Shown one piece after another: positions 857 through 26,943 of a stretch of 64,000 nucleotides of DNA (position 1 is its first letter; the number at the start of each line of letters is the position of its first letter). Made by a program: the position numbers and the translations under genes. The notes beneath the pieces are model-generated. The model saw only the letters and a list, made by a program, of their open reading frames with translations, was not told the DNA's origin and did no database searches. Source of the DNA: Chloroflexota bacterium (GTDB lineage Bacteria > Chloroflexota > Chloroflexia > Chloroflexales > Herpetosiphonaceae); assembly GCA_020161265.1 (NCBI GenBank), contig JAIUOC010000003.1:107024-171023 (forward strand), in the 5' to 3' direction.

Positions 857-1561
857 GTGCTAACCATGGCTCGACCTGCTGCTAGCAATCCTTTCTTTCG
901 CACATGGTCACCAACCATGGCCTATGTTCTAGGCTATTGGTGGGCTGATGGATATATGCGGATCAAATCAAACACTGGCGCTCATGAAATACAGATTGCC
1001 AGCAATGATCTTGATCATTTGCAACAACTAGCTGATTCAATCGGCACAAAATACTACTTGCGCAAAGTTCGCCAAGATGGACAAACCTTCACCGTCGAAT
1101 TTTGCAGCAAGGAAATGTATACCGATTTGTTAGCATTAGGCGGTACTCCGCGTAAATCACGCACGATCGGGATGCCTGATGTGCCAGATGAATATCTTCG
1201 TGATTTTGTTCGTGGAGTAATTGATGGTGATGGTACTGTTGGCTGGAATGGAGATCGGCCAATCGTGCATCTCTATTCGGGATCAACCTTGTTTTTAGGT
1301 GGATTTACCCAACGTATCGAATCATTGACTGGAATTCCAGCACCGAATTTAATTGCTAATCGCAATAATTATTACATCAAGTGGAGCACAATTCGTGCAA
1401 AGTGTTTAGCAATGTGGCTGTATCGTAACAATAATGGCCTGATGCTAGCACGTAAGGCTGCGATCGCGCAGCAATTTGAGCAATGGCAACCAAAGAAGTC
1501 GCCTGAGCGGGGAACAATTACCGAGAAGATGCGCTTGCATTTTGCAAACTATCTTCCTTAA
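857..1561 (+). CDS. Free-standing double-motif LAGLIDADG homing endonuclease (ATG at 866; GTG at 857 also possible)
   Basis: Two LAGLIDADG-type motifs ([10 protein letters not shown] and [11 protein letters not shown]); ORF fills the rpoB-rpoC spacer; not in frame with rpoB (stop at 787). Confidence 0.75.
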
Positions 1562-1578: not shown

Positions 1579-4500
1579 ATGCTCGAAATCAATGAATTCA
1601 ATGCAATTCGTATCAGTCTCGCTTCACCAGAAGATATCCTGAGCTGGTCGCACGGTGAAGTAACTAAACCCGAGACGATTAATTATAGAACTCTGCGTCC
1701 TGAACGAGATGGCTTGTTCTGTGAAAAAATCTTCGGACCTACGCGCGATTGGGAGTGCTATTGTGGCAAATACAAACGTGTGCGTTATAAAGGCATTGTG
1801 TGCGATAAATGTGGCGTAGAAGTCACCCGATCCAAAGTGCGACGTGATCGCATGGGTCATATCAAACTTGCCTCGCCTGTATCGCATATTTGGTTTGTTA
1901 AAGGCACACCATCGCGTTTGGGTTTACTTTTAGATATCTCACCACGTAATCTTGAGCGGGTGCTTTATTTTGCCTCGTATATTATCACCGATGTCGATGA
2001 TCTGGCATTGGGCAATGTACGTGAGCAAATGAAGACCGACTTTGGCGTGCGGCGCAAGGATCTCGAAGAAAAAATTATCGAACAACGTGGCGAAAAGGCA
2101 ACCCGTTTAAGCAAAGACCTTGCGGCGATGGATAATGCCATGGAAGGCACGTTGGAGCGAACGCATGAACAATTTGCCCGCCAACGCCAAGAAATCGAAG
2201 ATGAAGCCAATGCCTTGCGTGAACATCTCGAAGAACTGATCGGCATCGACGCACTAGCCGATGAAGATATTGTTTATCGTGGTACGGTGTTGCTCGAAGA
2301 AAACGAGCCAGTGCGTGAACGCACATTGGAACAACTCGAACAACTGATCGATCAAGAGCGCGAAAAGCTCGAACAACGCCGCGAATACGAGATTGAAAAC
2401 GTGCGTTTGTTGGCTGACGGCGAGCGTGATCAACGCCAATCGGTGGCCGATGCTGAGCAAGAACGGCTGACCACGGCCTTGATCAAACAGCTTGAAGATC
2501 TCAACAAAGAAGAAAAAGACAAGCTTGATCGCTTGGATGATATTCAGTTGCACCGGATTATTTCGGAAAACGAATATCGGATTCTGCGTGATCTAGCGCC
2601 CTACACCTTCAAGGCCGATATGGGTGCTGGCGCGGTGCGCGACATCGTATCGATGGTTGATCTCGACGAATTGTCGAATCAAATGCAAGCCGAAGTGCAA
2701 AGCTCATCGGGCCAACGCCGCAAAAAAGCCACCAAACGGCTGCGCGTGGTTGAAGCATTCCGCAAGAGCGGCAATCGTCCTGAATGGATGATTATGACCG
2801 TCTTGCCAGTGATTCCACCAGATTTGCGCCCGATGGTCCAGCTTGATGGCGGTCGGTTTGCGACCTCCGACTTGAACGACCTGTATCGACGGGTGATCAA
2901 TCGCAACAACCGGCTCAAGCGCTTGATGGAGTTGAACGCTCCTGAAATCATCGTGCGCAACGAAAAACGTATGTTGCAAGAAGCGGTTGATGCCTTGATC
3001 GACAACGGTCGCCGTGGCCGCCCAGTCAGTGGCAAGGGCAAGCATCGCCTTAAGAGCCTGAGCGATATGCTCAAAGGCAAGCAAGGCCGCTTCCGCCAAA
3101 ACCTCTTGGGTAAGCGGGTTGACTACTCAGGCCGTTCGGTGATTGTGGTCGGACCAACCCTGCAATTGCACCAATGTGGTTTGCCCAAGAAAATGGCCTT
3201 GGAATTGTTCAAGCCATTCGTCATGCGCCGCTTGGTCGATAAAGGCTTTGCCCACAACATCAAATCAGCCAAGCGCTTCGTTGAGCGGGTTCGCCCCGAA
3301 GTGTGGGATGTGCTCGAAGAAGTCATCAAAGACTACTTGGTATTGCTGAACCGTGCGCCTTCGCTGCACCGTTTGTCGATTCAAGCCTTTGAAGCCAAGC
3401 TGATCGAAGGCTCGGCGATTCAATTGCACCCCTTGGTGTGTGCCGCATTCAACGCCGACTTTGACGGCGACCAAATGGCTGTGCACGTACCATTGTCGCG
3501 CAAAGCCCAAGAAGAAGCTCGTCGCCGCATGATTTCAACCTACAACTTGTTGTCACCAGCCACTGGCGACCCAATTATTACGCCATCGCAAGACATCGTG
3601 TTGGGTTGTTTCTACCTGACCCAAGTTCGGCCTGGGGCTAAGGGTGGCGGCAAACGCTTTGGTTCAATCGACGAAGCCTTGTTGGCCTACACCAACGGCA
3701 TTGTGCATATTCAAGCACCTGTTTGGATTGTGATCGAAGATTACATTCTGCCCGGTAGCGATTTGCGCGATAAACCACTACCATCGTTGGATGGCGTTAC
3801 GCCACGGGTTTTGATTGAAACCAGCGTTGGGCGGATCATCTTCAACAATGCGTTGCGCTACCAAGGCGAGCCAAAAGCTGGTGAAAACGGCTATCGCTCA
3901 CCATTGCACTATCGCAACTTCTTGGTTGGTAAATCGGGCTTGAAAGCCTTGATCGCCGACTGCTATCGCTTCCACTCACAGCGCGAGAATATCATTGCTG
4001 AAGTGTATCAAGAATTAATTGAGCGCTTCGGCCCTGAGACCTCGGAAGAATCGCTGTTGCGTTTCTATGCCTCAGAACGGACGGCGCGTTTGGCCGACCG
4101 AATCAAGGCGTTGGGCTTCAAGCACGCCACCTTGGGCGGGATGACCTTCTCGGCTTCGGACGTAGAAGTGCCCGATACCAAAGATGCAATTGTGCAAGAA
4201 ACCTACAAGAAAGTGCAAGACATCGAAAAGATGCAACGCCGTGGTTTGATTACCGACGACGAGCGCTATCGTGAAGTGGTTACGGCCTGGCTTGATGCTA
4301 CCAACAAAATCAAAACCGAAGTCCAACGGACGTTGAATCCATTCGGGCCAGTCTCGATGATGTCAACCTCGGGTGCGCGTGGTAACGTCGAGCAAATTCG
4401 CCAGATGGCTGGGATGCGGGGTTTGACCACCGACCCAACTGGACGGATTATCGAATTGCCGATTACCGCCAACTTCCGCGAAGGCTTGAGCGTTATCGAA

Positions 4501-6210
4501 TACTTCATCTCGACCCACGGTGGTCGTAAAGGTTTGGCTGATACCGCCTTGCGGACAGCCGACGCTGGTTACTTGACCCGCCGTTTGGTGGACGTAGCCC
4601 AAGATGTGATCGTGACGATCGAAGATTGTGGCACAACCGAAGGCATGTGGATTCGCACCAGCCGCGATATTTTGGCCTCGGTCGAAGATCGGATCGTTGG
4701 CCGCGTGACGGTGGCTCCGGTCACTAATCCCGTGACTGGTGAAGTCATTTTCGATACCGATAGCGAAATCTTAGAAGACGATGGCAAGCACATTGCGAAT
4801 GTGCTGAAATCGTTGGACAAAGAGGCTCAAGCTGAATTTGGCATTTATGTCCGTTCGGTACTGACCTGTAACGCCGATTATGGCATTTGTCGCAAGTGCT
4901 ATGGCCGCAACCTTGCCACTGGCAAGATGGTCGAAATTGGCGAAGCTGTCGGGATTATCGCGGCGCAATCGATTGGTGAGCCAGGGACGCAGCTGACTCT
5001 GCGGACGTTCCACACTGGTGGTGTGGCAACTGATACCGACATCACCCAAGGTTTGCCACGGGTGCAAGAAATCTTCGAAGCACGGATTCCGAAAGGGAAA
5101 GCGGTGCTGGCCCAGATTGCTGGCCGTGTCCAGATTGTGCGCGAAGAAGAAGGCATTCGACGCTTGCGAATCGTCTCTGAGGAAGTTTATACCGACGAGC
5201 AAATGTTGCCCAAAGATTACCGTGTGGTGGTCAAAAATGGTGATGCAGTCGAAATTGGCAACCTCTTGGCCGAAAGCAATGTCGATGGCGATGGTCGTGC
5301 GCCATTGGTCGCAGGCCTAGCTGGCAACGTCTATGTTGACGATGATCGTTTGGTAATTCAAGCCAAAGATATCGAAGAACATGAAGAAGTGATTGCCCAC
5401 GCTGCTCGTTTGCGGGTCAAAGATGGCGATTTGGTGCAAGTGGGCCAACAAATGACCGAAGGCTCGTCTGACCCTCAAGAAATGCTGCAATTGCGTGGTC
5501 GCGAAGCAGTTCAAGAATACCTGACCAACGAAGCCCAAAAGGTCTATCGTTCGCAAGGTGTGGGGATCAACGATAAGCACATCGAAGTGATTGTGCGCCA
5601 AATGTTGCGGCGGGTACGCATCGAAGAGCCAGGCGATACTGAACTCTTGCCAGGCGAATTAGTCGAACTCAACGAACTCAATCGGATCAATGCTTCGATT
5701 GTGAGCCAAGGTGGTGACCCAGCGTTGGCAGTGCCAGTCTTGTTGGGGATTACCAAGGCCTCGTTGTCAACCGACTCGTTCTTGTCGGCGGCCTCGTTCC
5801 AAGAAACCACGCGCGTGTTGACCGAAGCTGCCGTCAATGGCAAGATCGACTACCTGCGTGGCTTGAAAGAAAATGTGGTTATCGGCAAGCTGATTCCAGC
5901 TGGTACGGGGATGGAGCAACGGCGCAAATTGGCTGAAGAAGCCGCCTTGCGGGTTGCCCAAATCACCAGCGCTCCAGTTGATCGCGAAACACCTGCGGCA
6001 ACACCAGCGCCAGCGGTGATGAGCGAACCCAAGCCCGCGCCACCACGCTCATTCGACGAAGCCTTGAATGCTGTCACCAACATCGACAGTGGTAATGGGC
6101 CAAAGGATGACTTGTTTGCTCAAGCTATGGCTCGCTTGCAAGCTGAAGAAGGTCGCAAACCTACCCTGAGCGAACTCTTAGGCACTGACGAAGACGAAGA
6201 AAACGTCTAA
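1579..6210 (+). CDS. rpoC: DNA-directed RNA polymerase beta-prime subunit (1543 aa) with a lineage-specific coiled-coil insertion
   Basis: Zn-finger CxxC..CxxC near N-terminus, NADFDGD catalytic motif, bridge-helix and trigger-loop regions; RBS GAGGAG upstream of the ATG. Confidence 0.97.
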
Positions 6211-9700: not shown

Positions 9701-10774
9701 TTAGAACGAACGGGCAATTAAACAAATCCCAACCAAAGCACAAATGAAAAAAATCATCGCGAACAGAAAGAAATATTCAACTGAGCTATCTAGTCCAGTT
9801 TTTTCTTGATAGGTGATCTGTTGGGGCGGCACTTGCGGTTGTAAGATTTGCTGGGCTGATAGTGCAGGCTTGGTCGCTGTCGGCAAGACAATTGTTGCAA
9901 CTGCTGGCCGTTGGACGATTGTTGGTTGGCCGGCGCTGCTCATCAGGCTTGGCTGATTGTAAAAACTTTGTTGCAATTGCTGGATACATTGATCGATACT
10001 GGCTGGCCGTTCATTCGCAGCCAAGGCCATTGCTTGGGCTAAAACTGCTGCCATTGCAGGCGAAACCGCTGGATTTAAATTAACTGGATTGACCAACGGA
10101 TCAGGCTGACCATTAATCAAACTGCTAGCGCGAGTAAGCGCATCGGCTGGCTCGCAATTGGTCAACAAATGATAGAGGGTTGCGGCAAAACTATAGATAT
10201 CGCTGCGCTGATTGACTGGGCTGGTGGCCTGAATTTGCTCTAAGGCAGCGTAAGCCAAGGTATAAGCCACGACACTCTGGTTTGAGGAAGCCCATTGTTT
10301 GGCCAAGCCAAAATCGACCAAGATCAATTGGCCTTCGGGGGTGCGAATAATATTTTGTGGCTTAATATCGCGATGAATGACAGGTGGCGTTTGATGATGC
10401 AAATAGCTGAGCGCTGGAGCCAGTGCCTTGGCCCACGCTAGCACCACATCTGGCTCAAAGGCAGCGCCACGTTGGGCTAGTAGCTGATCAAGATTCTCGC
10501 CCTCGATCAAATCCATGATCAAAAAGGCGGCATCGCCAACCCGCTGCAAATCGTAAACCCGTGGCAATGATGGATGGCGCAAACGAGCCAAAATTTGAGC
10601 TTCACGCTGCAAATTAGTTTGAAACGTGGCATCTTGACCACGAAAATACTTAATTGCGACCTGATGATTAAGCTGTTGATCGAAGGCGGCATAGACCGTG
10701 CCCATACCACCTTGACCAATCAAACGCAAAATTTGATAGCGCCCAAGTAAAACTGAACCAACCCCTAAACTCAT
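9701..10774 (-). CDS. Ser/Thr protein kinase, tail-anchored (C-terminal TM helix)
   Basis: GQGGMGTVY glycine loop, VAIK, HRDIKPQN catalytic loop, DFGLAK, APE-like; Pro/Gln-rich linker then C-terminal hydrophobic helix. Confidence 0.9.
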   Translation of the reverse strand: MSLGVGSVLLGRYQILRLIGQGGMGTVYAAFDQQLNHQVAIKYFRGQDATFQTNLQREAQILARLRHPSLPRVYDLQRVGDAAFLIMDLIEGENLDQLLAQRGAAFEPDVVLAWAKALAPALSYLHHQTPPVIHRDIKPQNIIRTPEGQLILVDFGLAKQWASSNQSVVAYTLAYAALEQIQATSPVNQRSDIYSFAATLYHLLTNCEPADALTRASSLINGQPDPLVNPVNLNPAVSPAMAAVLAQAMALAANERPASIDQCIQQLQQSFYNQPSLMSSAGQPTIVQRPAVATIVLPTATKPALSAQQILQPQVPPQQITYQEKTGLDSSVEYFFLFAMIFFICALVGICLIARSF

Positions 10775-10785
10775 ACGCTCTCCCT

Positions 10786-12030
10786 CTAGAGGATAAAATT
10801 AATTGTCCCTAATAAAATCAATACAATCAAGATAAACACAATATTCATCACTTGGGTGGGGTTCTCAAGCTCCTCGTCATCCAGCATTGCATTCATACGA
10901 CTATTGGCAGCTTGTTGGGTCGTCATCCATTGCGAATTATTGAGTGGGCTAAATGGCTTTGGCTCTTCGCGCTCTTGGTAGAGTTGCTCATAATTAGGCA
11001 TGCTCCATTGAGCGCGATGCATTTGGTCAGCCGCGCTCCAGCGCGAAATCGAGCGGCGTGGGCGCGGTGGAGCAGCTGGAGTTGAAGCTGGAGCCGGACG
11101 TGGCTCGAAGCGCCGTGGCGTAGCATAACTCACCCCATCAGGCAACTGTGAATCAACCCGAATTGTCGGCTGCCCAGCGCTGGTAGCCGCAACCAAGGGC
11201 ACGCTCACCGTTGCTGATTGCGCTGCTTGCAATAAACTGACGACCGCACGAATACTAGCTGGGCGGGCATCAGCCCGTAACGCCAAACTATCCATCAGCA
11301 CCCGATCAAGCGCTGGCGAAACCGCGTTATTCAGGCTGCTTGGCAAGGGCAATGGGTCGGGGTTCGCATAAATTTGCGCACTAGCACGGGTCAAGGCATC
11401 AACTGGCTCGCGATTGGTTAGCAAATGATAGAGCGTTGCGCCAAAGCCGTAGACATCGCTGCGTTGATCCAGTGTGTTTGTGCCCTGAATCTGCTCCAAC
11501 GAAGCATAGGGCAGGGTATAGGCAATCACGCTTTGCTGGCCGGTTGACCATTGTTTGGCTAAACCAAAATCGAGCAAAATCAATTTGCCAGCCGGTGTGC
11601 GCATCACATTATGCGGCTTGATATCGCGGTGAATCACGGGTGGCGTTTGTTGATGCAGGTAGCTCAATGGCTCAGCCAAGGTTGCTGCCCACGCCACCAC
11701 GGTTGCAGGCTCGAAGCCGCTGCCGCGTTGGGTTAGCAATGTGCCCAGGGTTTCACCCTCGATCAAATCCATGATCAAATAGGCATCATCGTTCTCGCGG
11801 CGAATATCATAGACGCGCGGCAAGGCGGGGTGTTGCAACCGCGCTAAAATTTGGGCTTCGCGGTCGAGGCTGGCATGCAAAGCAGGATCGTGATTGCGAA
11901 AGTGTTTAATCGCGACAGGCGTGTTCAATTGGCGATCAAACGCGGCATAGACTGCGCTCATACCGCCTTGGCCGATTGCCCGCACGATGTGATACCGCCC
12001 TAACAATTCGATTCCTGCTTGAAGCAACAT
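10786..12030 (-). CDS. Ser/Thr protein kinase, tail-anchored paralog
   Basis: GQGGMSAVY, VAIK, HRDIKPHN, DFGLAK; Pro-rich linker; C-terminal TM (IVFILIVLILLGTINFIL); about 60% identical to neighbour in the kinase domain. Confidence 0.9.
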   Translation of the reverse strand: MLLQAGIELLGRYHIVRAIGQGGMSAVYAAFDRQLNTPVAIKHFRNHDPALHASLDREAQILARLQHPALPRVYDIRRENDDAYLIMDLIEGETLGTLLTQRGSGFEPATVVAWAATLAEPLSYLHQQTPPVIHRDIKPHNVMRTPAGKLILLDFGLAKQWSTGQQSVIAYTLPYASLEQIQGTNTLDQRSDVYGFGATLYHLLTNREPVDALTRASAQIYANPDPLPLPSSLNNAVSPALDRVLMDSLALRADARPASIRAVVSLLQAAQSATVSVPLVAATSAGQPTIRVDSQLPDGVSYATPRRFEPRPAPASTPAAPPRPRRSISRWSAADQMHRAQWSMPNYEQLYQEREEPKPFSPLNNSQWMTTQQAANSRMNAMLDDEELENPTQVMNIVFILIVLILLGTINFIL

Positions 12031-17192: not shown

Positions 17193-18287
17193 TTAAAAAA
17201 CCATGCCGCTTGGTCGTACTAAGCTGCGATCGATGCTGGCTAGATTGGGGCGGCCACATAGCGCCATCGAGCGTTGTAATTCGCGCTGCATGGTCGTTAG
17301 CACATCGGCAACCCCAGCACTACCCGCCACTGCCAAGCCCCATAAGACTGGTCGCCCAAGCATAATTGCCTGTGCTCCTAAAGCCAAGGCTTTAAGCGCA
17401 TCGCTGCCACGGCGAATCCCGCCATCGATATAAATTTCGCACGGGCTTTGCGCCAATGCCGCGACAACCTCGGGCAAGGCTTCAAGCGTGGTAACCGTAC
17501 CATCAATTTGGCGGCCACCATGATTTGACACCACGATCGCTGCCGCGCCTGCCTCAGCAGCCAACAGCGCATCCTCAGCGGTCAAAATACCCTTGACGAT
17601 GATGGGCAAGCTAGTCACCGAGCGCAACCAAGCGATCGATTCCCAAGTCAAGCCAGCATCAAACATATCGGCTTTGGGGTCGGGCAAGGCATTCGGGCCA
17701 GCACGGCGATAATTTTGGGCGGCAGGCACATCGCGAAAATTGGCCATACTCAGATGGGCGGGTACACCAAAACCACTGCGCAACTCACGTTCACGCCGCC
17801 CAAGCCACGGACGATCAATCGTTAACATCAAGGCTTGATAGCCAGCAACTTCGGCGCGAGCAATCAAACGCTCCGACACACTGCGATCACGATAGACATA
17901 CAATTGAAACCAGAGCGGGCATTCGGCGGCAGCCGCAACTTCTTCCAACGAGCGGGTGGCGAGGGTGCTTACGGTGAAAATTGAGCCAGCTTGAGCCACG
18001 CCTCGCGCAGTTTCACATTCGCCCTCAGCATGGGCCAAGCCATGGTAGGCCGATGGTGCAACCAAAATTGGCGAATTAAGCGGCTTGCCCAGCAAAGTTG
18101 TGGCGGTTGAGACTTCACGCACATCAACCAAAAATCGTGGTCGCAAACGTACCTGCTCAAATGAAAGCAGATTCGCCCGCAAAGTCACTTCATCCTCGCA
18201 GCCACCTGCATAATAATCGCAGGTTGGGCCATCCAACAGCGTCATTGCCTGTTGCTCATACTCGTGGAGATTAATCGGCTTGCTCAT
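17193..18287 (-). CDS. FMN-dependent alpha-hydroxy-acid dehydrogenase/oxidase (L-lactate dehydrogenase / glycolate oxidase family)
   Basis: TIM-barrel FMN motifs incl. SNHGGRQ(I)DG and GGIRRG; 364 aa. Confidence 0.85.
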   Translation of the reverse strand: MSKPINLHEYEQQAMTLLDGPTCDYYAGGCEDEVTLRANLLSFEQVRLRPRFLVDVREVSTATTLLGKPLNSPILVAPSAYHGLAHAEGECETARGVAQAGSIFTVSTLATRSLEEVAAAAECPLWFQLYVYRDRSVSERLIARAEVAGYQALMLTIDRPWLGRRERELRSGFGVPAHLSMANFRDVPAAQNYRRAGPNALPDPKADMFDAGLTWESIAWLRSVTSLPIIVKGILTAEDALLAAEAGAAAIVVSNHGGRQIDGTVTTLEALPEVVAALAQSPCEIYIDGGIRRGSDALKALALGAQAIMLGRPVLWGLAVAGSAGVADVLTTMQRELQRSMALCGRPNLASIDRSLVRPSGMVF

Positions 18288-18377
18288 TGCAGCGATCCTT
18301 TCGCAGCCTGAAATAATCCGGTGGCTCTAGTGTAGCAGATGCTCAAGCCAAATTCAGTAGTACAAATGAGCAAACGC

Positions 18378-19454
18378 TTAACGCTTGGATTGAATCACAA
18401 ATCCAATTGGAATTGAAAAGATGATTAAAACTAGCAGTGCAACGATAAAGTTCTCAAATCGAACAACCCCAATATCTTGATTAAGCGTTGGTTTACGGCT
18501 TGCGATAATTGAGATCGAATGATTTTCAATGTCATCACCGTGCTTAATCACATAATTATCAGTATAGGAAAATTGATAATCATCATCACAATCAGGGTAT
18601 CTAGGCATCGAATCGATGTGTGGTAGATGTTTGTGGTAATATTGATGAATCCCAGCTTCAAATGTATAACTATCTCTCTCACTATACATCGGATATAATG
18701 TATTATCGATATCTTGAGCGATGATTGAATTTGGTAGCATAATCGTGCCATTCATCATTGATTGTTGATTATTTCTTCCATTGAAAGAATAGCAATACAT
18801 TGGATTATTATTGAAGTATTTATAATAATTGGTATTAAAGATTACTGCTACCATAATAATATTTATAACTACAGCTATCTTCATCGCTCGATGTTGATAT
18901 AATTCTAGAGCAAAAAAACCAATATAAATCTTTTTGTACAGTATTAAAAGGGCGATTGTTGCTAATACAATCACTAGCGGGCCAAATTTAATATCGGTGC
19001 CTGCTCCGCTTGTATCGAGACTGTAATACCCAAATGCATTAATGTCTGCTTGATAAACTAATTCTAATGGCTGACTATCGGTTTGATCGCCTGAAACAAC
19101 CTCAAGGGTAAAGGTATAACGCAATGGCTCATCAGGCAGTTGACATTGAAGAGAATTCAGTAAGCGAATATTAAAAAAACTTTCTAGTTGATCCAAATGA
19201 AAATAATTATGTTGTTGGCTAAGATCAACGACAAATATCTTGGAAGGATCACTTGTTAAGATAAAACGTAATTGAACTGGTTGAATTGAGGCTGGTTCAA
19301 TCGCTAAAATCTGATCGATCATTACCAAGTGTTGGCCAGTAGTCAATTGGGTCGTTGGGGTACTTATAATTGGGAAAAAACATGGGATTGGCTCTGGTGC
19401 GTCGCAACCAACCAACAGCAGCAACATTCCAATCAATAATAAACGCCGTAGCAT
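18378..19454 (-). CDS. Hypothetical lipoprotein/membrane protein encoded by a strongly AT-rich gene (compositional outlier)
   Basis: Lipobox LLVGC at N-terminus; Asn/Tyr/Ile-rich; internal and C-terminal hydrophobic helices; local GC visibly far below neighbours. Confidence 0.6.
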   Translation of the reverse strand: MLRRLLLIGMLLLLVGCDAPEPIPCFFPIISTPTTQLTTGQHLVMIDQILAIEPASIQPVQLRFILTSDPSKIFVVDLSQQHNYFHLDQLESFFNIRLLNSLQCQLPDEPLRYTFTLEVVSGDQTDSQPLELVYQADINAFGYYSLDTSGAGTDIKFGPLVIVLATIALLILYKKIYIGFFALELYQHRAMKIAVVINIIMVAVIFNTNYYKYFNNNPMYCYSFNGRNNQQSMMNGTIMLPNSIIAQDIDNTLYPMYSERDSYTFEAGIHQYYHKHLPHIDSMPRYPDCDDDYQFSYTDNYVIKHGDDIENHSISIIASRKPTLNQDIGVVRFENFIVALLVLIIFSIPIGFVIQSKR

Positions 19455-19520
19455 AGCCTCGCTCCTTCTAAAATTGTCGTTAGAAGGAGCATAGCAAGCC
19501 TAAATGGATATTAAATGGCG

Positions 19521-20435
19521 TTAGTGGCTGATCCAACTGTGCAAAATCATGCCTAAAATAATCACGCCAAGGCCTGCCAAGGTCAATGCTGTTGGCGCAG
19601 GGCTATGCAAAATCACAATCTCGCCAACCAAGGCAAAGACGACTTCGCCTGCTTGGGTTGCCTCAACTGCCGCCAATTGGCCTTGATGGTGCTGAGCTAA
19701 ATCAGTAGCTTTGAAAAAGAGCACGGTGGCGATTACGCCTGCCAATAGTGCAACCAATAACGATTGGAAGATTTGGCTTGTGCTCGGCCAACCAACTGTG
19801 GTTGCCGCCACGCCCGCTAAAATCAGCCAAAACGGCAGGCTGGCAATTGTCATGCCTAGCACACGTTCAAAGGTTGCCAAGCGCTGCCCACATAGTTGCA
19901 TCATGGCGCGATTGCCCAACGGATAGGCAAACGCGGCGATTACAACTGGCACAAAGCCCAAAAGCACTTCGCGCCAGCCAATCGCCGCCGCATGTTGCAA
20001 TTGAATTACCGCCACACCCAATAAAATCAGGCCCGAAATCGCTAAACTGCGCCAATGCCAAGCAGGTTGGTTGGGTGCAGCTTTGGCTTGCAACAACGGC
20101 GCAACCAAGGCTCCAGCAATAATTGTGATCTGCCAAGTGCTGGCAACCAACCACGCTGGGGCATATTTGGCGGCAAAACAGAGCGGCGCGTAAAACAACC
20201 CAAAGCCAATCGTGCTCCACCACAGCCATTGCCAAGGCTGTTGCCGCAACTCTTGCAGCACCAAACCAAGCTTGCCGCGCCATGCCACAATCGCCACCAA
20301 CGGAACCAGCATAAACAAATAGCGTAGGCTGGCACTCCACAGCCAATGACCACCCGCCAACTCCATCAAACGATTGAGCACAAAGGTCGAAGCAAAAAAG
20401 AGCGAGGCCAACAAGCCTAACAACAGTGCACGCAT
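19521..20435 (-). CDS. DMT-superfamily (EamA-like) transporter
   Basis: About 10 predicted TM helices, two EamA-like halves, 304 aa. Confidence 0.75.
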   Translation of the reverse strand: MRALLLGLLASLFFASTFVLNRLMELAGGHWLWSASLRYLFMLVPLVAIVAWRGKLGLVLQELRQQPWQWLWWSTIGFGLFYAPLCFAAKYAPAWLVASTWQITIIAGALVAPLLQAKAAPNQPAWHWRSLAISGLILLGVAVIQLQHAAAIGWREVLLGFVPVVIAAFAYPLGNRAMMQLCGQRLATFERVLGMTIASLPFWLILAGVAATTVGWPSTSQIFQSLLVALLAGVIATVLFFKATDLAQHHQGQLAAVEATQAGEVVFALVGEIVILHSPAPTALTLAGLGVIILGMILHSWISH

Positions 20436-20522
20436 AACCTTGATCCTACATTAACTGTGTTGAGAATTGGCCAAGTATAGCATGCAGGGCCGAGGCCTCG
20501 CTCCGATTGATTGAAAAGCGAT

Positions 20523-23444
20523 TTAATCTAACACATGTTTTTGCAAGGCCTGAAGCTCACTCGACGGATCAAGGCCTTGCTCTTCGAGTAAAGCCTCACG
20601 ATAGCGATCATAAATTGCCAAGGCTTCGGTTCGGCGACCTTGATTAATTTCCAAGTTCATTGCCAAAACCACTGCCCGTTCATTCAAAACATCAAGTTTC
20701 ATCGCCTGCTCAAAGGCTTTTTGGGCTTGGTCGAAACGTTGTACGTCATACCATTGATTGCCAATTGAGATCCAAATTTCGGCTCCACGTCGCGCCAAAA
20801 CTTTGCGTTCATGCTCAATCCATGGGGCATTGCTGCCGACTAAAAATCCTTGGCTGGCATACTCAGCGGCAACTTGCAAGCGCTCCAAGGTCGCTTCAGA
20901 ACCAAGCAACGAGGTCTGTTTAATCACCACAATATCGGCATCGATCTCCGAGTGCGGGAAGCGCAAACGATACAGCGAACCATCATACACAACACAATCG
21001 GGCAATTCTTTGCGCGTCCGTTGCAGCATTTTGCGCCAACCATCATTGCTACTATCAAAGCCCCAAATTTTTTCGCGTAATTCATCGGCAGTCATGCCAG
21101 TTGGGTTCAACAACAACAACGCGATTAACAACATACCTTGGCGCGGAATGCGTACCTGTTTGCCATCCATTTCAAGCCGCATTTGGCCCATCAAACGCAC
21201 AATCAATTTTGGTGCTTGAGGCATTGGCGGCAGGTTATGGCGCAGCACCCGCGCCGCAAATGGCGAATTCCATTGGGTATAAGCTTGGTTGACCAATTCA
21301 GGTAAGTGCACGGTGAGCGCCGATAACAGCACTGGCAAGCCACTGCGGCCATCAACAATTAATTGATCAAGTGCCTGCCAAGCTTGCTGAGCCTCGCCAA
21401 CCTCATGGCGTTGCCAAAAAGCTTCGCTTAACAACAGATATAGCAAGCCTTTGGCTAATGATCCTTGGTTGTCCAACCCAGCCAATGCCCGTTGCAGCAG
21501 CGGAATCGTGCCATCAATTTTGAGCGTTAAGTTAGCAGCACTCCGCGCCACCGCTAACCAAGCCTGATCGAGTGGGTTTTGAGCGGTGGTGGTGTCGATT
21601 TCAATTAATAGGCGTTGCAGTTGCTCAAGTGAACTATGGCGGGTGGCCTGCGATTCCAAGGCCAAGGCATAGATAATAATGTGATAATCGACGACATTGC
21701 TGGCCCGTAACTGCTCACGCGCCAAGCGATAGCGCCCAATTGCACTCGTCCAATCGCGATCAGCCAAGGCCACATCACCAAGCGTCACCAAGGCACCATT
21801 CGCTGCCCGAATATCCGAAATTCTGGCGTTATCGTATGCTTGTTGGGCGTAGCGGGCGGCATCGCTCATTTGGCCTTGGTGCAGTGCCACCAGCGCCCGC
21901 AAATTCAAGGTTTGCGATAACCCCGATGGCGATGCCATTTCTTCCCAGAGCGAGGTTGCTTGGCGCAAAAGCCGATCAGCCAAGGAATAACGTCCGGCTC
22001 GCGCTGCCGCATTGGCATAATCGCCCAAAATCAGGCCAAGCAAGCGATTAACCCCTGAATGCTCCATATGTTTGTGGGCACGCTCAAAGTGGGCAATCGC
22101 TGCATCATCTTGACCCAAGGAAGCCAAATAAATCGCATGCGTCCGTAGAATTCGCGCTTGATCGGCTGGCGATAGATCAGGGTCGTTCAAGTAGGGCTGA
22201 ATCAAGCTATCAGCCTCGCCAATTGCCCCTTGTGCCCGCAGCAGATCAGCTTTAAGCAACAGAAACATTCGTTGTTGATCAGACTGTTGATGAATCCCTA
22301 GCAGTTGATTGACTAAAAGTAAAGCCTTTTCAGCGTTGCGCAAACCAAGGTGATAACTACGCACCAACAACCAGCCAACTTTGGGCGCAAGCTGCTGTAT
22401 CGGAACATCATTGAGGGCTTTGACCAGCTCACCAAAAAACCGCTCATTGTTAATTAAATCAAGCTGTTGAGTCAAACAATGATTGATCACATCCCAGCGT
22501 TGCAAGCGTTGCATCTTTTGCACAAATTGGAGCAGGCGTTGCTCAGTCAGATACCAATCGCCAGCTTGGGCAAAAAATTCGGTCAAATAGGCCGCCTGAG
22601 GATGCGAACGCTTGCGCAAACCAACTTCAGGCAAGCGTTGTAAGCGCAGGTTTGCTTCAACAATCAAGCCTGCATATTCCCAACTCATTAACAAACGATG
22701 CAAATCGTGCTTTGGCAAGAGTGTTTGGAGCAATTCAAGCGAATCAGGGGCGATCCATAGCCAAGCTTCCAAGCTATGCTGCAAAGGCTCAGGCAAACTT
22801 GTCATCACATCTTGCATGACCCATTCGAGCGCTGATTGATTGAGCACGCCCGATCGATTGAGCGCAAAAATACAGGGCGCGACCCAACCGTCAGTCAAAT
22901 CGATCAGCTGATCAGCTTGGGCTTGGCTGAGATTCAGTTGGCGTTGTTGAGCCAAGGCGATTAATTCAGCACTGTTGAAAGCTAGCTCCTGCATACCAAC
23001 CACTACCAAATGTCGTCGAATAATCCATTGTTGAATCATTGGCAGGTTGGGGATGTGTAGCGAGGTGGCAACGATATGCAGCGCTGGATTTTTTAATAAT
23101 TCTACGAGCCAAGCGTGCTCAGGCAAAAATGTGCCCCAAGCATCCAAAATCCGATCCAAATCGTCGATCAAAATCCAGGTTGGTTGGCGCAAACTCAAAA
23201 GCTGCTCGTGTGGATGTTCGTTGGCCAACCCAAGTTGTTGGCAAATTGCCTGGAGCAGCAACGATGGATCATTGGCTGGCTCAAGCCGAATTAAGGCAGA
23301 CGGGGCGTTGATGGAATGCTTAAGTGCCTCTAACACTGTGGATTTGCCGCTGCTCGGCAACCCAATGATTAAGACTACCCGTGGCTCATGTTGGGTCAAA
23401 GTGAGTAAACGTGGGCGTTCAACATAGGTCGGATAAAAACTCAT
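20523..23444 (-). CDS. Large signal-transducing regulator: N-terminal P-loop NTPase, TPR-like repeats, C-terminal SARP module (OmpR-type wHTH plus BTAD)
   Basis: Walker A GLPSSGKST and Walker B WILIDDLD; helical repeat region; C-terminus has trans_reg_C-like wHTH (ADELREKIWG...YRLR) followed by BTAD-like helical domain. Confidence 0.8.
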   Translation of the reverse strand: MSFYPTYVERPRLLTLTQHEPRVVLIIGLPSSGKSTVLEALKHSINAPSALIRLEPANDPSLLLQAICQQLGLANEHPHEQLLSLRQPTWILIDDLDRILDAWGTFLPEHAWLVELLKNPALHIVATSLHIPNLPMIQQWIIRRHLVVVGMQELAFNSAELIALAQQRQLNLSQAQADQLIDLTDGWVAPCIFALNRSGVLNQSALEWVMQDVMTSLPEPLQHSLEAWLWIAPDSLELLQTLLPKHDLHRLLMSWEYAGLIVEANLRLQRLPEVGLRKRSHPQAAYLTEFFAQAGDWYLTEQRLLQFVQKMQRLQRWDVINHCLTQQLDLINNERFFGELVKALNDVPIQQLAPKVGWLLVRSYHLGLRNAEKALLLVNQLLGIHQQSDQQRMFLLLKADLLRAQGAIGEADSLIQPYLNDPDLSPADQARILRTHAIYLASLGQDDAAIAHFERAHKHMEHSGVNRLLGLILGDYANAAARAGRYSLADRLLRQATSLWEEMASPSGLSQTLNLRALVALHQGQMSDAARYAQQAYDNARISDIRAANGALVTLGDVALADRDWTSAIGRYRLAREQLRASNVVDYHIIIYALALESQATRHSSLEQLQRLLIEIDTTTAQNPLDQAWLAVARSAANLTLKIDGTIPLLQRALAGLDNQGSLAKGLLYLLLSEAFWQRHEVGEAQQAWQALDQLIVDGRSGLPVLLSALTVHLPELVNQAYTQWNSPFAARVLRHNLPPMPQAPKLIVRLMGQMRLEMDGKQVRIPRQGMLLIALLLLNPTGMTADELREKIWGFDSSNDGWRKMLQRTRKELPDCVVYDGSLYRLRFPHSEIDADIVVIKQTSLLGSEATLERLQVAAEYASQGFLVGSNAPWIEHERKVLARRGAEIWISIGNQWYDVQRFDQAQKAFEQAMKLDVLNERAVVLAMNLEINQGRRTEALAIYDRYREALLEEQGLDPSSELQALQKHVLD

Positions 23445-23674
23445 AGCAGTTTCCTCAAGATGCTTGGTACGATGCTACCCCACCAACTATTAAGCAGTAC
23501 AGCGCAATCGTGCTCAACTGTTGAGAGGCTAGGTTGTTCCAATTCGTTACCTATGTTCAATAGGATATACCGAGCTATAGAGCACATCTATGCACGTCCT
23601 AGGCTATTTCTAGATCGATTTCTTGTATATCCACTGTATCATAGCAAAAGAATCATGAATGTAGTGGAGCTGTT

Positions 23675-24046
23675 ATGCAACTTGTCACACTCGACCACAT
23701 CCAATTGGCAATGCCCGCAGGCCAAGAGGCCCAAGCACGCTGGTTTTACAGCACGATTCTTGGCCTCGACGAAGTTGCCAAGCCTGTTCAATTGCAAGCT
23801 CGTGGCGGCTGTTGGTTTCGCAGCGCCACAATCGAACTCCACCTTGGGGTTGAGGCCGATTTTCGGCCTGCTCGCAAAGCGCATCCGGCCTTTCGCGTCG
23901 CCGATCTTGCACAAGCGCGAGCTGAATTAAGCAGTGCAGGCATTGCGATTGTTGAAGATGACAGCCTGCCCCATGTGCGCCGTTTTTACGCTGCCGATCC
24001 CTTTGGCAATCGGATTGAGTTTGTCCAAGTTGGCGATGTCTATTAA
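23675..24046 (+). CDS. VOC (glyoxalase / bleomycin-resistance / dioxygenase) family protein
   Basis: LDHIQLAMP...RFYAADPFGNRIEF pattern typical of VOC fold; 123 aa. Confidence 0.7.
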   Translation: MQLVTLDHIQLAMPAGQEAQARWFYSTILGLDEVAKPVQLQARGGCWFRSATIELHLGVEADFRPARKAHPAFRVADLAQARAELSSAGIAIVEDDSLPHVRRFYAADPFGNRIEFVQVGDVY

Positions 24047-24352
24047 ATTTCGTAGGCCAATCGCTGCAATACTTAATTAATACCGCCAATTGCTTAACTT
24101 AGATGCTAGGGATTCCTATTTATTTTGTATTTTGGGCGGCAACTACTGGCACAACTTATGCACACGAGGAGATCGCCGATCAAATTATGTTGATTGGCAA
24201 GCTACTACACCAAACATCCGCTCAACCATGCCCTGAAAGCACCCAAATAGGCCGGTATCTTCTGGTATACTGAACAACGGCGCGGCCCTCGAATGCCCGT
24301 GCTGGCCACCGCGCTGAGTGCTGCATTGTTGACACTGCGAGGGTTGCAGACC

Positions 24353-26860
24353 ATGAAAGCAGTTTTAATGGCTGGGGGTGAAGGCTCTCGGCTCCGACCA
24401 CTCACCATCAGTCGGCCCAAACCAATGGTTCCCTTGGTCGATCGACCAGTCATGGGCCATATTATTGAACTTCTGAAACGCCACGGCATCACCGATATTA
24501 TTATTACGGTGCAATATCTCGCCAATATTATTCAAGATTTTTATGGCGATGGCTCGGCGTTTGATGTCGATATTTCGTATTCGGTTGAAGAAGTGCCACT
24601 CGGCACCGCTGGCGCGGTTAAATATGCCTCACGCTTAATCGATGATGATACTGAACCCGTGATCGTAATTTCTGGCGATGCGCTGACCGATTTTGATTTA
24701 ACCGCCTTGATCGAAGCCCATAAACGCTCGAATGCCAAAGCCACAATTACCCTTACCCGCGTTCCCAACCCGCTTGAATATGGCGTGGTGATTACCGACG
24801 ATACGGGCCGAATTCGCCAGTTCCTCGAAAAACCCAGTTGGGGCGAGGTTTTTTCCGATACCGTCAATACTGGAATTTATGTGATCGATCCCTGTGTGCT
24901 TGATGATATTCCACTGGGCGAGCCGTTTGATTTCTCCAAAGATTTATTTCCAGCATTGTTGCGGCGCGGCGAACTGCTCCATGGCTATATTGCCGAGGGC
25001 TATTGGACAGATGTTGGCAACATCGAAGCCTATATGCGAGCCTGCTCGGATTATTTGATGGGTATGGTTAATTTGCCGCGCTTAGGCCATGATCGCGGCG
25101 ATAATGTTTGGATTGAAGGCGAGGTTGAAATTGCCCCCGATGCCCAAATTCATGGGCCAGTCTTTTTTGGTCATGGGGTCAAGATCAAAGGTGGGGCGAT
25201 GGTATTTGGCCCATCGGTCATCCGCGATTATACAATTATCGATTCGCGTGCCACCATCGATCGTTCAATTATGTGGCGCAACTCGTATGTTGGCGAACGT
25301 GCTGAATTACGTGGGGCGATTGTTTGCAAGCAGTGCAATATTAAAAGTCGCTCGTTGCTGTTCGAGGGCGTAGTGGTCGCCGATAGTACGATCATCAACG
25401 CTGGGGCGGTGATTCAGCCCAACGTTAAAATTTGGCCTTCGAAAGAAGTTGAAGAGGGTGCGACTGTTAGTGCCTCGATTATTTGGGGGGCGCAAGGGCG
25501 GCGGGTGCTGTTTGGGCGCTACGGCATTACAGGCTTGGTCAATATCGACCTTACGCCAGAATTTTGTGCCAAACTTGGGGCAGCCTATGGTGCGATTTTG
25601 CCTAAAAATACCACCGTTACCATGAATCGCGATGCCCACTACACCCCACGCATGCTCAAACGTGGCTTGATTGCGGGCATTCCATCGGCGGGGATTAATG
25701 TGTTGGATTTGCATTCAGTGCCAATTCCCACTGCCCGCTATTTGACCTATGCGCTGAATGCTGCTGGTGGCATGCATGTGCGGCTTTCGCCGTTCGATAA
25801 TCGGGTGGTGGATATTAAATTCTTCGATCATCGCGGGCTTGATCTAGGTAGCGACATGGAGCGCAAGATCGAGAATACCTACTTTCGCGAAGATTATCGC
25901 CGCGTCTATCTCGATGAAATTGGCCGAATCACTGAAAACAGCGATTACAATTCGGTCTATATCGATAAATTTATGGAATCGCTTGACCCCCATATTTTGC
26001 CCGAGCTAGAAGACCCTTGGAGCATCGTGATCGATTATGCGTCGTCGAATGCGGCGCAAATTTTGGGTATTTTGCTACGGCGCTTGAATGTTGATTTAGT
26101 TGAACTCAATGCCCAAATCGATGAAGATCGTTTGTTTCAAACTGCCGATCAATTTAATGCTGGTATGCAACGGCTCACAGCAATTGTACCCGTGATGAAT
26201 GCTGATATTGGGGTGCGGCTCGATTCGGGCGGCGAACGAATTTACGTTGTCGATGATACTGGCCATCGATTAACTGATATTGAATTATTGGCGGCGGTCA
26301 CTGCCTTGACCATGGAAGCCAACAAAGGTGGCACCGTGGCCGTGCCAGTCACTGCGCCGCGCTTGTTCGATAAATTGGCTGAGCGCTATGGCGGGCGCAT
26401 CCAGCGTACCAAAACCGCCTTGGGGGCACTGATGCAACAAGCCGCCAAATGCAACGATTTATGTGTCTTGGGCGATGGAGCTGGCAGCCTGATTTTTCCA
26501 TCGTTCTTTCCAGTTGCCGATGGCCTATTTGCAATTGTTAAATTGATGGAATTACTGGCCCGCGCCAAAATTCCCCTCTCGGAGATTCGGCGTTCATTGC
26601 CACGCTCAGCCATGGCTAACCACAAAGTGCCATGTCGCTGGGAATCCAAGGGCAAAGTTATGCGGATTCTCAATGAACAATATGCTGAACGTGCTCAAGA
26701 CAACATCGACGGGATCAAGATTGATCTTGGGCCAGAGTGGGTGCTGATTCTGCCCGACCCTGACGGCCCCTTCATCCATGTGATTGCCGAGGGAGTCAAT
26801 GACGATCAAGCCCGCGTGCTCACTGAAAAATATGCAGGTTTAGTGATGGGGTTGCAATAG
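24353..26860 (+). CDS. Fusion protein: sugar-1-phosphate nucleotidyltransferase, left-handed beta-helix, and phosphohexomutase-like domain with a degenerate catalytic loop
   Basis: N-terminal [13 protein letters not shown] (G-x-G-x-R pyrophosphorylase motif); hexapeptide repeats; C-terminal PGM/PMM-like fold in which the TASHNP loop reads RLSPFDN. Confidence 0.8.
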
Positions 26861-26943
26861 CGCTGAGCGGTGGGGTTTATGCAATAAGGCCAAGCTCCTG
26901 AGTTATTTGGTATCTGCTCGGCATCTGAACAATCAATCAGCAA

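Follow-up and report, generated by a model that had tools for sequence, protein, structure and literature searches.

Which chassis carries a SARP-type DNA-binding module that stands at the C-terminal end of a protein, and does the nucleotide switch of such a regulator still operate? This question is raised by an open reading frame (ORF) for 973 amino acids (aa) at positions 20523 to 23444, minus strand, of a 64,000-nucleotide (nt) stretch of DNA, here called the window, from a Chloroflexota bacterium of the Herpetosiphonaceae, a Herpetosiphon (assembly GCA_020161265.1, contig JAIUOC010000003.1, positions 107,024 to 171,023). According to the structural model and profile searches described below, the protein is built from a MalT-type nucleotide-binding oligomerization domain (NOD), a tetratricopeptide repeat (TPR) superhelix resembling domain III of MalT, and a C-terminal SARP module consisting of a winged helix-turn-helix (wHTH) and a BTAD. 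It is probably a STAND-class transcription activator that acts in the cytoplasm as a one-component signal transducer and works by a general MalT/AfsR-like scheme.

An intact gene under purifying selection

The regulator is a real, intact gene, and every domain is under purifying selection. The ORF reported in the initial annotation was confirmed on the minus strand; it opens with an ATG, which is preceded at a distance of 7 nt by the Shine-Dalgarno sequence GAGGA (23452-23456). Orthologs with 76 to 98% identity were found in eight Herpetosiphon genomes or contigs (H. aurantiacus DSM 785, H. giganteus, H. geysericola, H. llansteffanensis, strain NSE202, and metagenome-assembled genomes [MAGs]). 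Comparison with four species gave a ratio of nonsynonymous (dN) to synonymous (dS) substitution rates of 0.09 to 0.16 overall and 0.06 to 0.23 per domain, at a synonymous divergence of about 1.0 to 1.2 substitutions per site.

For the structural assignment, an AlphaFold2 (AF2) model of the regulator (mean pLDDT, 92.8; pTM, 0.70) was compared to the PDB with Foldseek. Two profiles, one of the Herpetosiphonaceae clade and one of the wider family, were also searched against the PDB, and an alignment of 88 relatives was built in which motif columns were counted. The features of the gene and its product are as follows.

20523..23444, minus strand: complete coding sequence of the regulator, a 973-aa MalT-type STAND/SARP protein (ATG start; stop codon 20523-20525)
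22995..23444, minus strand: nucleotide-binding domain (NBD), residues 1-150 (Pfam AAA_22/AAA_16; MalT NOD alignment; AF2 model)
23340-23363, minus strand: Walker A motif GLPSSGKS, residues 28-35 (conserved in relatives)
23160-23177, minus strand: Walker B motif WILIDD, residues 90-95 (conserved in relatives)
23058-23060, minus strand: Leu129 instead of Arg at the sensor-I position (MalT NOD alignment; motif tally)
22395..22994, minus strand: helical domain (HD), winged-helix domain (WHD), and arm of the NOD, residues 151-350 (clade profile against MalT 8bob_C)
22638-22640, minus strand: Gln269 replacing the conserved His of the family, YHPLF in MalT (MalT alignment; motif tally)
21225..22394, minus strand: TPR-like superhelical sensor, residues 351-740 (AF2 model; Foldseek; TPR_12)
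20937..21224, minus strand: OmpR/PhoB-type wHTH, residues 741-836 (AF2 model; AfsR alignments; Foldseek)
20526..20936, minus strand: BTAD, residues 837-973 (Pfam BTAD; AfsR/EmbR profile matches; helices 837-972 in the model)

A MalT-type chassis with a SARP output

Five regions could be distinguished in the AF2 model: a P-loop domain, a helical/winged-helix region, paired helices, an OmpR-type winged helix, and a helical BTAD. Pfam searches of the 973-aa protein gave AAA_22 at residues 20-83 (29.7 bits; cut-off, 27), TPR_12/TPR_2 matches in the repeat region, and BTAD at residues 871-972 (43.4 bits; cut-off, 22.1). Hence, the AAA, TPR, and BTAD families named in the initial annotation were recovered; NB-ARC (PF00931) and Trans_reg_C, also named there, were not. 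The proposed order of NTPase, TPR array, and wHTH-BTAD was borne out by Pfam, the AfsR alignments, and the AF2 model. As the initial annotation stated, this order is the reverse of that of AfsR-type SARPs, which agrees with the published SARP classes: the described architectures (small, medium, large, and SARP-LAL) all carry the SARP module at the N terminus (PMC10972967).

The first two regions are homologous to the NOD of MalT. The P-loop domain is five-stranded (strands 23-27, 49-53, 89-94, 122-128, and 146-149), and residues 151-350 contain a conserved G186-W187 motif; WHD_MalT (PF25873) was recorded for the relative P0013. The clade profile matched the MalT NOD (8bob_C) with an E value of 7e-28 over profile positions 7-358, the family profile did so at 7.6e-92, and Foldseek found the same structure at 1e-7. 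The tripartite NBD-HD-WHD arrangement of STAND proteins, with a GxxxxGK[ST] Walker A and an hhhhD Walker B motif, is present. AfsR was matched by the clade profile at 5e-21 via the SARP part only; therefore, the ATPase belongs to the MalT clade and not to the NB-ARC type of AfsR, which in AfsR-type large SARPs stands between the SARP module and the TPRs.

The third region comprises approximately 20 paired helices in residues 351-740 and constitutes the TPR-like (SUPR) sensor expected after the NOD in MalT/LAL proteins. Foldseek aligned it to MalT domain III (1hz4) with a TM score of 0.74 and a root mean square deviation (rmsd) of 4.5 Å over 368 columns, and the family profile matched the same domain with an E value of 5e-19. 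TPR_12 was detected in the window protein and TPR_MalT in its relatives. The MalT/LAL resemblance noted in the initial annotation thus proved stronger than had been guessed. The sensor is also the best-conserved domain (85 to 87% amino-acid identity between species; dN, 0.08 to 0.10). Sensing of a metabolite, as suggested in the initial annotation, is plausible.

The C terminus departs from MalT. No GerE match marked a LuxR-type helix-turn-helix there; instead, a wHTH is followed directly by a BTAD, as in SARPs. The modeled winged helix consists of a β-sheet (747-764), two helices (768-779 and 786-794), a recognition helix (800-813), and a wing (818-836). The recognition helix bears the conserved residues W803, K805, R809, R811, and K812; W794 and D837 do not vary among the 88 relatives, at least 90% of which conserve R811. 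The NCBIfam AfsR model aligned to residues 743-972, covering both winged helix and BTAD, and a phmmer search against the PDB placed residues 747-972 on residues 45-283 of the AfsR chain 8hvr_I (E value, 1.6e-5). The clade profile matched EmbR at 9e-6, while the family profile reached 2.4e-66 for AfsR and 5e-30 for EmbR. Foldseek superposed the module on the AfsR SARP chain 8k60_J (TM score, 0.73; rmsd, 3.3 Å; 245 columns; 25% identity) and matched the chain 8hvr_I as well. The N-terminal position of the SARP module was not found; it occupies residues 741-973 of 973.

Because the NOD is homologous to that of MalT and not to the NB-ARC domain of AfsR, the protein is a MalT/LAL chassis in which the LuxR-type output has been swapped for a SARP module. 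It is an independent fusion and not a circularly permuted AfsR. With MalT/LAL regulators it shares the order of NOD, TPR-like sensor, and C-terminal DNA-binding output, a NOD homologous in sequence, and a sensor that folds as MalT domain III, and its relatives carry the APAGYGKT P-loop of MalT as well as WHD_MalT and TPR_MalT. It differs from MalT in its output (OmpR-type wHTH and BTAD versus LuxR/GerE helix-turn-helix), in its P-loop (GLPSSGKS), and in the absence of the Ser-Arg and Tyr-His residues that are conserved in MalT. The large SARPs of Streptomyces, AfsR among them, combine the same three kinds of module (SARP, STAND ATPase, and TPRs), and the SARP modules are homologous and superposable. 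However, SARP is N-terminal in AfsR and C-terminal in the window protein (PMC10972967), the ATPases are of different types, which makes the two independent fusions, and the host is a Chloroflexota predator and not an actinomycete. The best overall fold match for NOD plus TPR was PH0952, a STAND-TPR protein of Pyrococcus horikoshii (6mfv; Foldseek E value, 2e-11; clade profile E value, 4e-7); this archaeal protein lacks a C-terminal SARP module, and the match spans only about 640 residues. EmbR of Mycobacterium tuberculosis shares the wHTH-BTAD module, but there it is coupled to an FHA domain and controlled by Ser/Thr phosphorylation, and EmbR has neither an ATPase nor a TPR sensor.

Proposed mechanism of activation

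MalT/LAL proteins multimerize in an inducer- and ATP-dependent manner. By analogy with MalT and AfsR, the sensor and the NOD of the window protein would keep the regulator closed in the resting state. The protein would open and multimerize, as MalT does, once a small molecule or a partner protein has bound the TPR sensor and ATP occupies the P-loop. The C-terminal SARP modules would thereby be placed side by side on repeated promoter sites, and RNA polymerase (RNAP) would be recruited through the BTAD, as in the AfsR-RNAP structures, in which two SARP modules lie side by side on direct repeats and contact RNAP (PMC11301090). The most likely first target would be the divergent promoter region that the regulator shares with a VOC gene.

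Several observations weigh against this scheme. Pfam Trans_reg_C matched neither the whole protein nor the isolated winged-helix segment. SARPs bind heptameric or 11-bp-phased direct repeats that overlap the −35 element of their target promoters, and in the two flanking spacers (23445-23674 and 20436-20522), where the initial annotation proposed to look for such sites, no SARP-type 11-bp direct repeats rose above shuffled expectation. The best hits of a repeat/autocorrelation scan of both spacers (7/9 matches) equaled the mode of the shuffles. The target sites of the regulator may lie outside these spacers. Activation rather than repression is assumed from the BTAD only. The gene neighbors are not conserved beyond the genus, as seen at the loci of the distant homologs P0008 and P0013. 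Finally, judged from the alignments, both residues that would read the state of the bound nucleotide are replaced, and the canonical ATP/ADP switch may not operate in Herpetosiphon.

Loss of the switch residues

STAND and NLR proteins alternate between an ADP-locked OFF state and an ATP-bound ON state, and in these proteins the His equivalent to that of the MalT winged-helix domain touches the β-phosphate of ADP and locks the OFF state (preprint 10.64898/2026.09.02.748808). The sensor-I arginine at the end of β-4, part of a Ser-Arg motif (LSRNLP in MalT), was found in 72 of the 88 relatives, while the window protein has Leu129. Likewise, the MHD-type His of the winged-helix domain (YH in MalT) is kept in 70 relatives and is Gln in 8, and the window protein has Gln269. 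Both replacements were seen in all eight Herpetosiphon sequences, and P0008 and P0009, the next relatives, show them in part. The Walker residues behave differently: the Walker A Lys (K34 in the window protein) is retained in 85/88 relatives and the Walker B Asp (D94) in 84/88. A single ortholog, from a Chloroflexia MAG (L004/L007, 4001-6916), has the Walker A sequence GLPSSGRS, in which Arg takes the place of Lys; the change is due to a sequencing error or else adds to the signs of a relaxing NTPase in this clade.

These replacements lend themselves to a different explanation, namely, that DNA binding and activation have been kept while the residues for the ADP lock and for sensing of hydrolysis have been lost. 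The protein would then be a constitutively open activator, or one that oligomerizes upon ATP binding only, and its activity would be set mainly by its expression level, through the conserved upstream region, which would serve as a long leader or an operator array. The exchange of both residues throughout the genus, the Lys-to-Arg change in the MAG, and the finding that mutation of the equivalent His-Asp in AfsR yields an autoactive regulator (preprint 10.64898/2026.09.02.748808) all favor such a degenerate switch. On the other hand, nucleotide binding is still under selection, since the cultured species keep Walker A and B without exception and the dN/dS of the NBD is 0.14 to 0.22. Simple decay is argued against by this purifying selection on the NBD together with the sensor being the best-conserved domain, which also argues that signal sensing persists. 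On balance, we consider a degenerate switch unlikely, although it deserves to be weighed seriously against the signal-responsive activator, which we continue to prefer.

The conserved upstream spacer

The region 5′ of the regulator gene bears on the same alternative. Its features are as follows.

23445..23674, no strand assigned: 230-bp divergent control region, the spacer between the VOC gene and the regulator (cross-genome conservation)
23441..23587, minus strand: 48-codon upstream ORF whose stop codon overlaps the start of the regulator (ATGA), annotated as a gene in two public assemblies
23638-23646, minus strand: candidate extended −10 element TGCTATGAT (relaxed promoter scan only)

No other DNA of the locus is conserved as strongly as the spacer. 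Across seven sequences (the window and six other Herpetosiphon genomes), mean column identity was 96%, and a 65-nt core (23539-23603) showed no substitution at all. The fraction of all-identical columns was 0.87 to 0.95 in the spacer versus about 0.5 to 0.7 in the regulator coding sequence. Between H. aurantiacus and H. giganteus, the spacer is 93% identical, compared to 81% and 74% for the two flanking genes and 29 to 69% for other long spacers. With a regulator dS of about 1, the spacer is approximately 10-fold more conserved than synonymous sites.

A small protein was rejected as the cause of this conservation, as substitutions in the upstream ORF and in an antisense ORF were spread over all codon positions; those in the 48-codon ORF numbered 5, 6, and 2 at positions 1, 2, and 3, respectively. 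Judging from this pattern, the 48-codon ORF is probably not a conserved protein. Nor did the spacer resemble a structured RNA: it had no Rfam match, its fold was no more stable than that of shuffled sequences (z-scores, +0.73 and −0.5), and RNAalifold gave 0 compensatory pairs and thus no covariation. A pairing that would sequester the Shine-Dalgarno sequence and the AUG was considered and discarded as statistically not compelling. No canonical or consensus sigma-70 promoter was detected in the spacer by a promoter scan. The relaxed scan placed the candidate extended −10 element approximately 190 nt 5′ of the regulator start, with an overlapping TATCAT that faces the VOC gene. None of the 4-mers in the spacer was overrepresented after correction for multiple testing; ATAG/CTAT occurred 8 times, which was not significant family-wise. 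No further copies of the conserved element were present elsewhere in the window or at other loci, and a search of the JGI metagenomes with two 22-mers returned none either. The spacer may serve as a long leader, as a dense divergent operator region, or in both roles.

For the degenerate switch discussed above, the extreme conservation of the 230 bp and the distant −10 candidate of the relaxed scan are points in favor, and the lack of a stable fold, of covariation, and of an Rfam match in the supposed leader is a point against. Carried further, the argument would make the Herpetosiphon protein a naturally “unlocked” STAND regulator whose control has moved to an upstream RNA leader of approximately 190 to 230 nt or to a dense operator array. 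This extension is speculative, and we think it rather improbable. If it is true, the upstream element would be a previously undescribed cis-regulatory element that controls the divergent VOC gene as well as the regulator. The most testable leads of the locus are the ultraconserved upstream element and the loss of the switch residues.

Two other functions would require a different view of the C terminus or of the whole protein. The regulator might be a repressor, an antiactivator, or a nontranscriptional TPR scaffold whose SARP-like C terminus serves protein-protein contacts. The unmatched Trans_reg_C model and the missing repeats would fit this idea, as would the TPR-like character of the BTAD, which TPR models also pick up. 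However, the full OmpR-type topology, the basic recognition helix, the superposition on DNA-bound AfsR, and the conservation of W794, D837, and R811 in the 88 relatives speak for a DNA-binding output, so that we judge this explanation highly improbable. To an antiphage or conflict STAND NTPase (Avs or bNACHT-like) with an incidental DNA-binding effector we give almost no credence: Avs3 and similar STAND-TPR proteins were among the distant Foldseek fold matches and the regulator gene evolves faster than its neighbors, but PADLOC gave P-loop-level matches only (E value, ≥1e-3), a nuclease, protease, or TIR effector is lacking, in eight genomes the gene sits amid housekeeping genes at a position that is conserved on the chromosome, and its dN/dS is about 0.1.

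Distribution of the MalT-SARP family

The initial annotation implied an unusual architecture, and this did not hold. When 1.84 billion cluster representatives (50% identity) were scanned exhaustively with HMMER, 1417 proteins reached an E value of ≤1e-3. Among the best 150 of these, 88 were longer than 900 aa and had a SARP match in the C-terminal third, 13 had the AfsR order, 38 were no longer than 600 aa, and the other 11 fell outside these bins. Most of the 88 are approximately 1070 aa long and display the MalT P-loop signature APAGYGKT; AAA_16, TPR_MalT, BTAD, and WHD_MalT are also present in this set. All members with a named source are Chloroflexota (Roseiflexaceae, Caldilineaceae, Litorilinea, and unclassified MAGs). 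The window protein falls into a small branch of Herpetosiphonaceae proteins whose P-loop reads GxxGSGK[ST]. Databases list these proteins as “tetratricopeptide repeat protein” or “BTAD domain-containing putative transcriptional regulator,” and some JGI entries read “MalT/DNA-binding SARP family.” The architecture is common in databases, has in part been annotated automatically, and is built from well-known modules. The name “MalT-type STAND/SARP regulator” would be a refinement over “TPR repeat protein.”

Proteins that share the NOD-TPR part and end in GerE/LuxR (P0172 to P0178) obtained nearly equal scores with the family profile. Sisters of this kind with the same NOD-TPR part fit an output-domain swap on one chassis. 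On the contig of the homolog P0008 (L005, 11393-14653, minus strand), a second TPR protein of 1086 aa with faint BTAD matches lies 2.4 kb downstream; this hints at a paralogous expansion of such regulators in the Herpetosiphonaceae.

No relevant open-access literature was found on a C-terminal SARP module in STAND proteins or on SARPs in Herpetosiphon or Chloroflexi, which is not proof of absence, and no characterized member of the MalT-SARP family was found. The literature treats SARPs as actinomycete regulators with N-terminal DNA binding and MalT/LAL proteins as regulators with a LuxR output; this large family departs from both. The characterization of one member would reveal whether a STAND oligomer is able to drive a SARP module from its C-terminal end, which signals predatory Chloroflexota rich in secondary metabolites perceive through such regulators, and whether STAND switches tolerate the loss of canonical sensor residues.

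Neighboring genes and synteny

The genes around the regulator are as follows.

23675..24046, plus strand: VOC/glyoxalase-family gene (123 aa), divergent from the regulator (Pfam Glyoxalase)
19521-20435, minus strand: EmrE/EamA-type DMT transporter gene, 3′ of the regulator
18378-19454, minus strand: ORF of 358 aa without a Pfam, NCBIfam, or PADLOC match, in a low-GC stretch
17193-18287, minus strand: gene for an FMN-dependent alpha-hydroxy-acid dehydrogenase or oxidase

The VOC gene is divergent from the regulator at all seven other Herpetosiphon loci (85 to 93% amino-acid identity) and is the only neighbor that holds its position beside the regulator across the genus; it is therefore a candidate target of the regulator. 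Control of this gene, as proposed in the initial annotation, is compatible with the synteny at the genus level only, as the VOC gene is absent beside the distant homologs P0008, which keeps ybbR-cdaA, and P0013, which has neither. The other proposed target, the DMT exporter, fared worse in the same comparison. In the seven other Herpetosiphon genomes, a convergent ybbR-cdaA pair abuts the stop codon of the regulator, and the DMT gene, the 358-aa ORF, and the FMN gene are not found there; on these grounds, the three genes were rejected as a regulon. GC content is 0.43 over 18001-20000, compared to about 0.51. This suggests that the trio at 17193-20435 is a strain-specific insertion or rearrangement.

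The regulator, the VOC gene, and a gene for a bifunctional sugar-1-phosphate nucleotidyltransferase/phosphomutase are conserved as a unit (approximately 20523-26866). In the 64-kb window, minCDE is absent from one side of this block and ybbR-cdaA from the other, unlike in the other genomes. As both outer flanks differ, the three-gene block has been relocated in this strain. No biosynthetic cluster adjoins the regulator gene.

Two tandem Ser/Thr protein kinase genes are located at 9701-12030 (minus strand), approximately 10 kb from the regulator, with no linkage shown. SARPs such as AfsR and EmbR are controlled by kinases. Elsewhere in the window, a free-standing 234-aa ORF (857-1561, plus strand) encodes a LAGLIDADG_3 homing-endonuclease-like domain (E value, 2e-10); it is flanked by rpoB, the 3′ end of which spans 23-787, and by rpoC (1579-6210). 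RpoC of the window comprises 1543 aa and contains a large insertion in Rpb1 domain 1.

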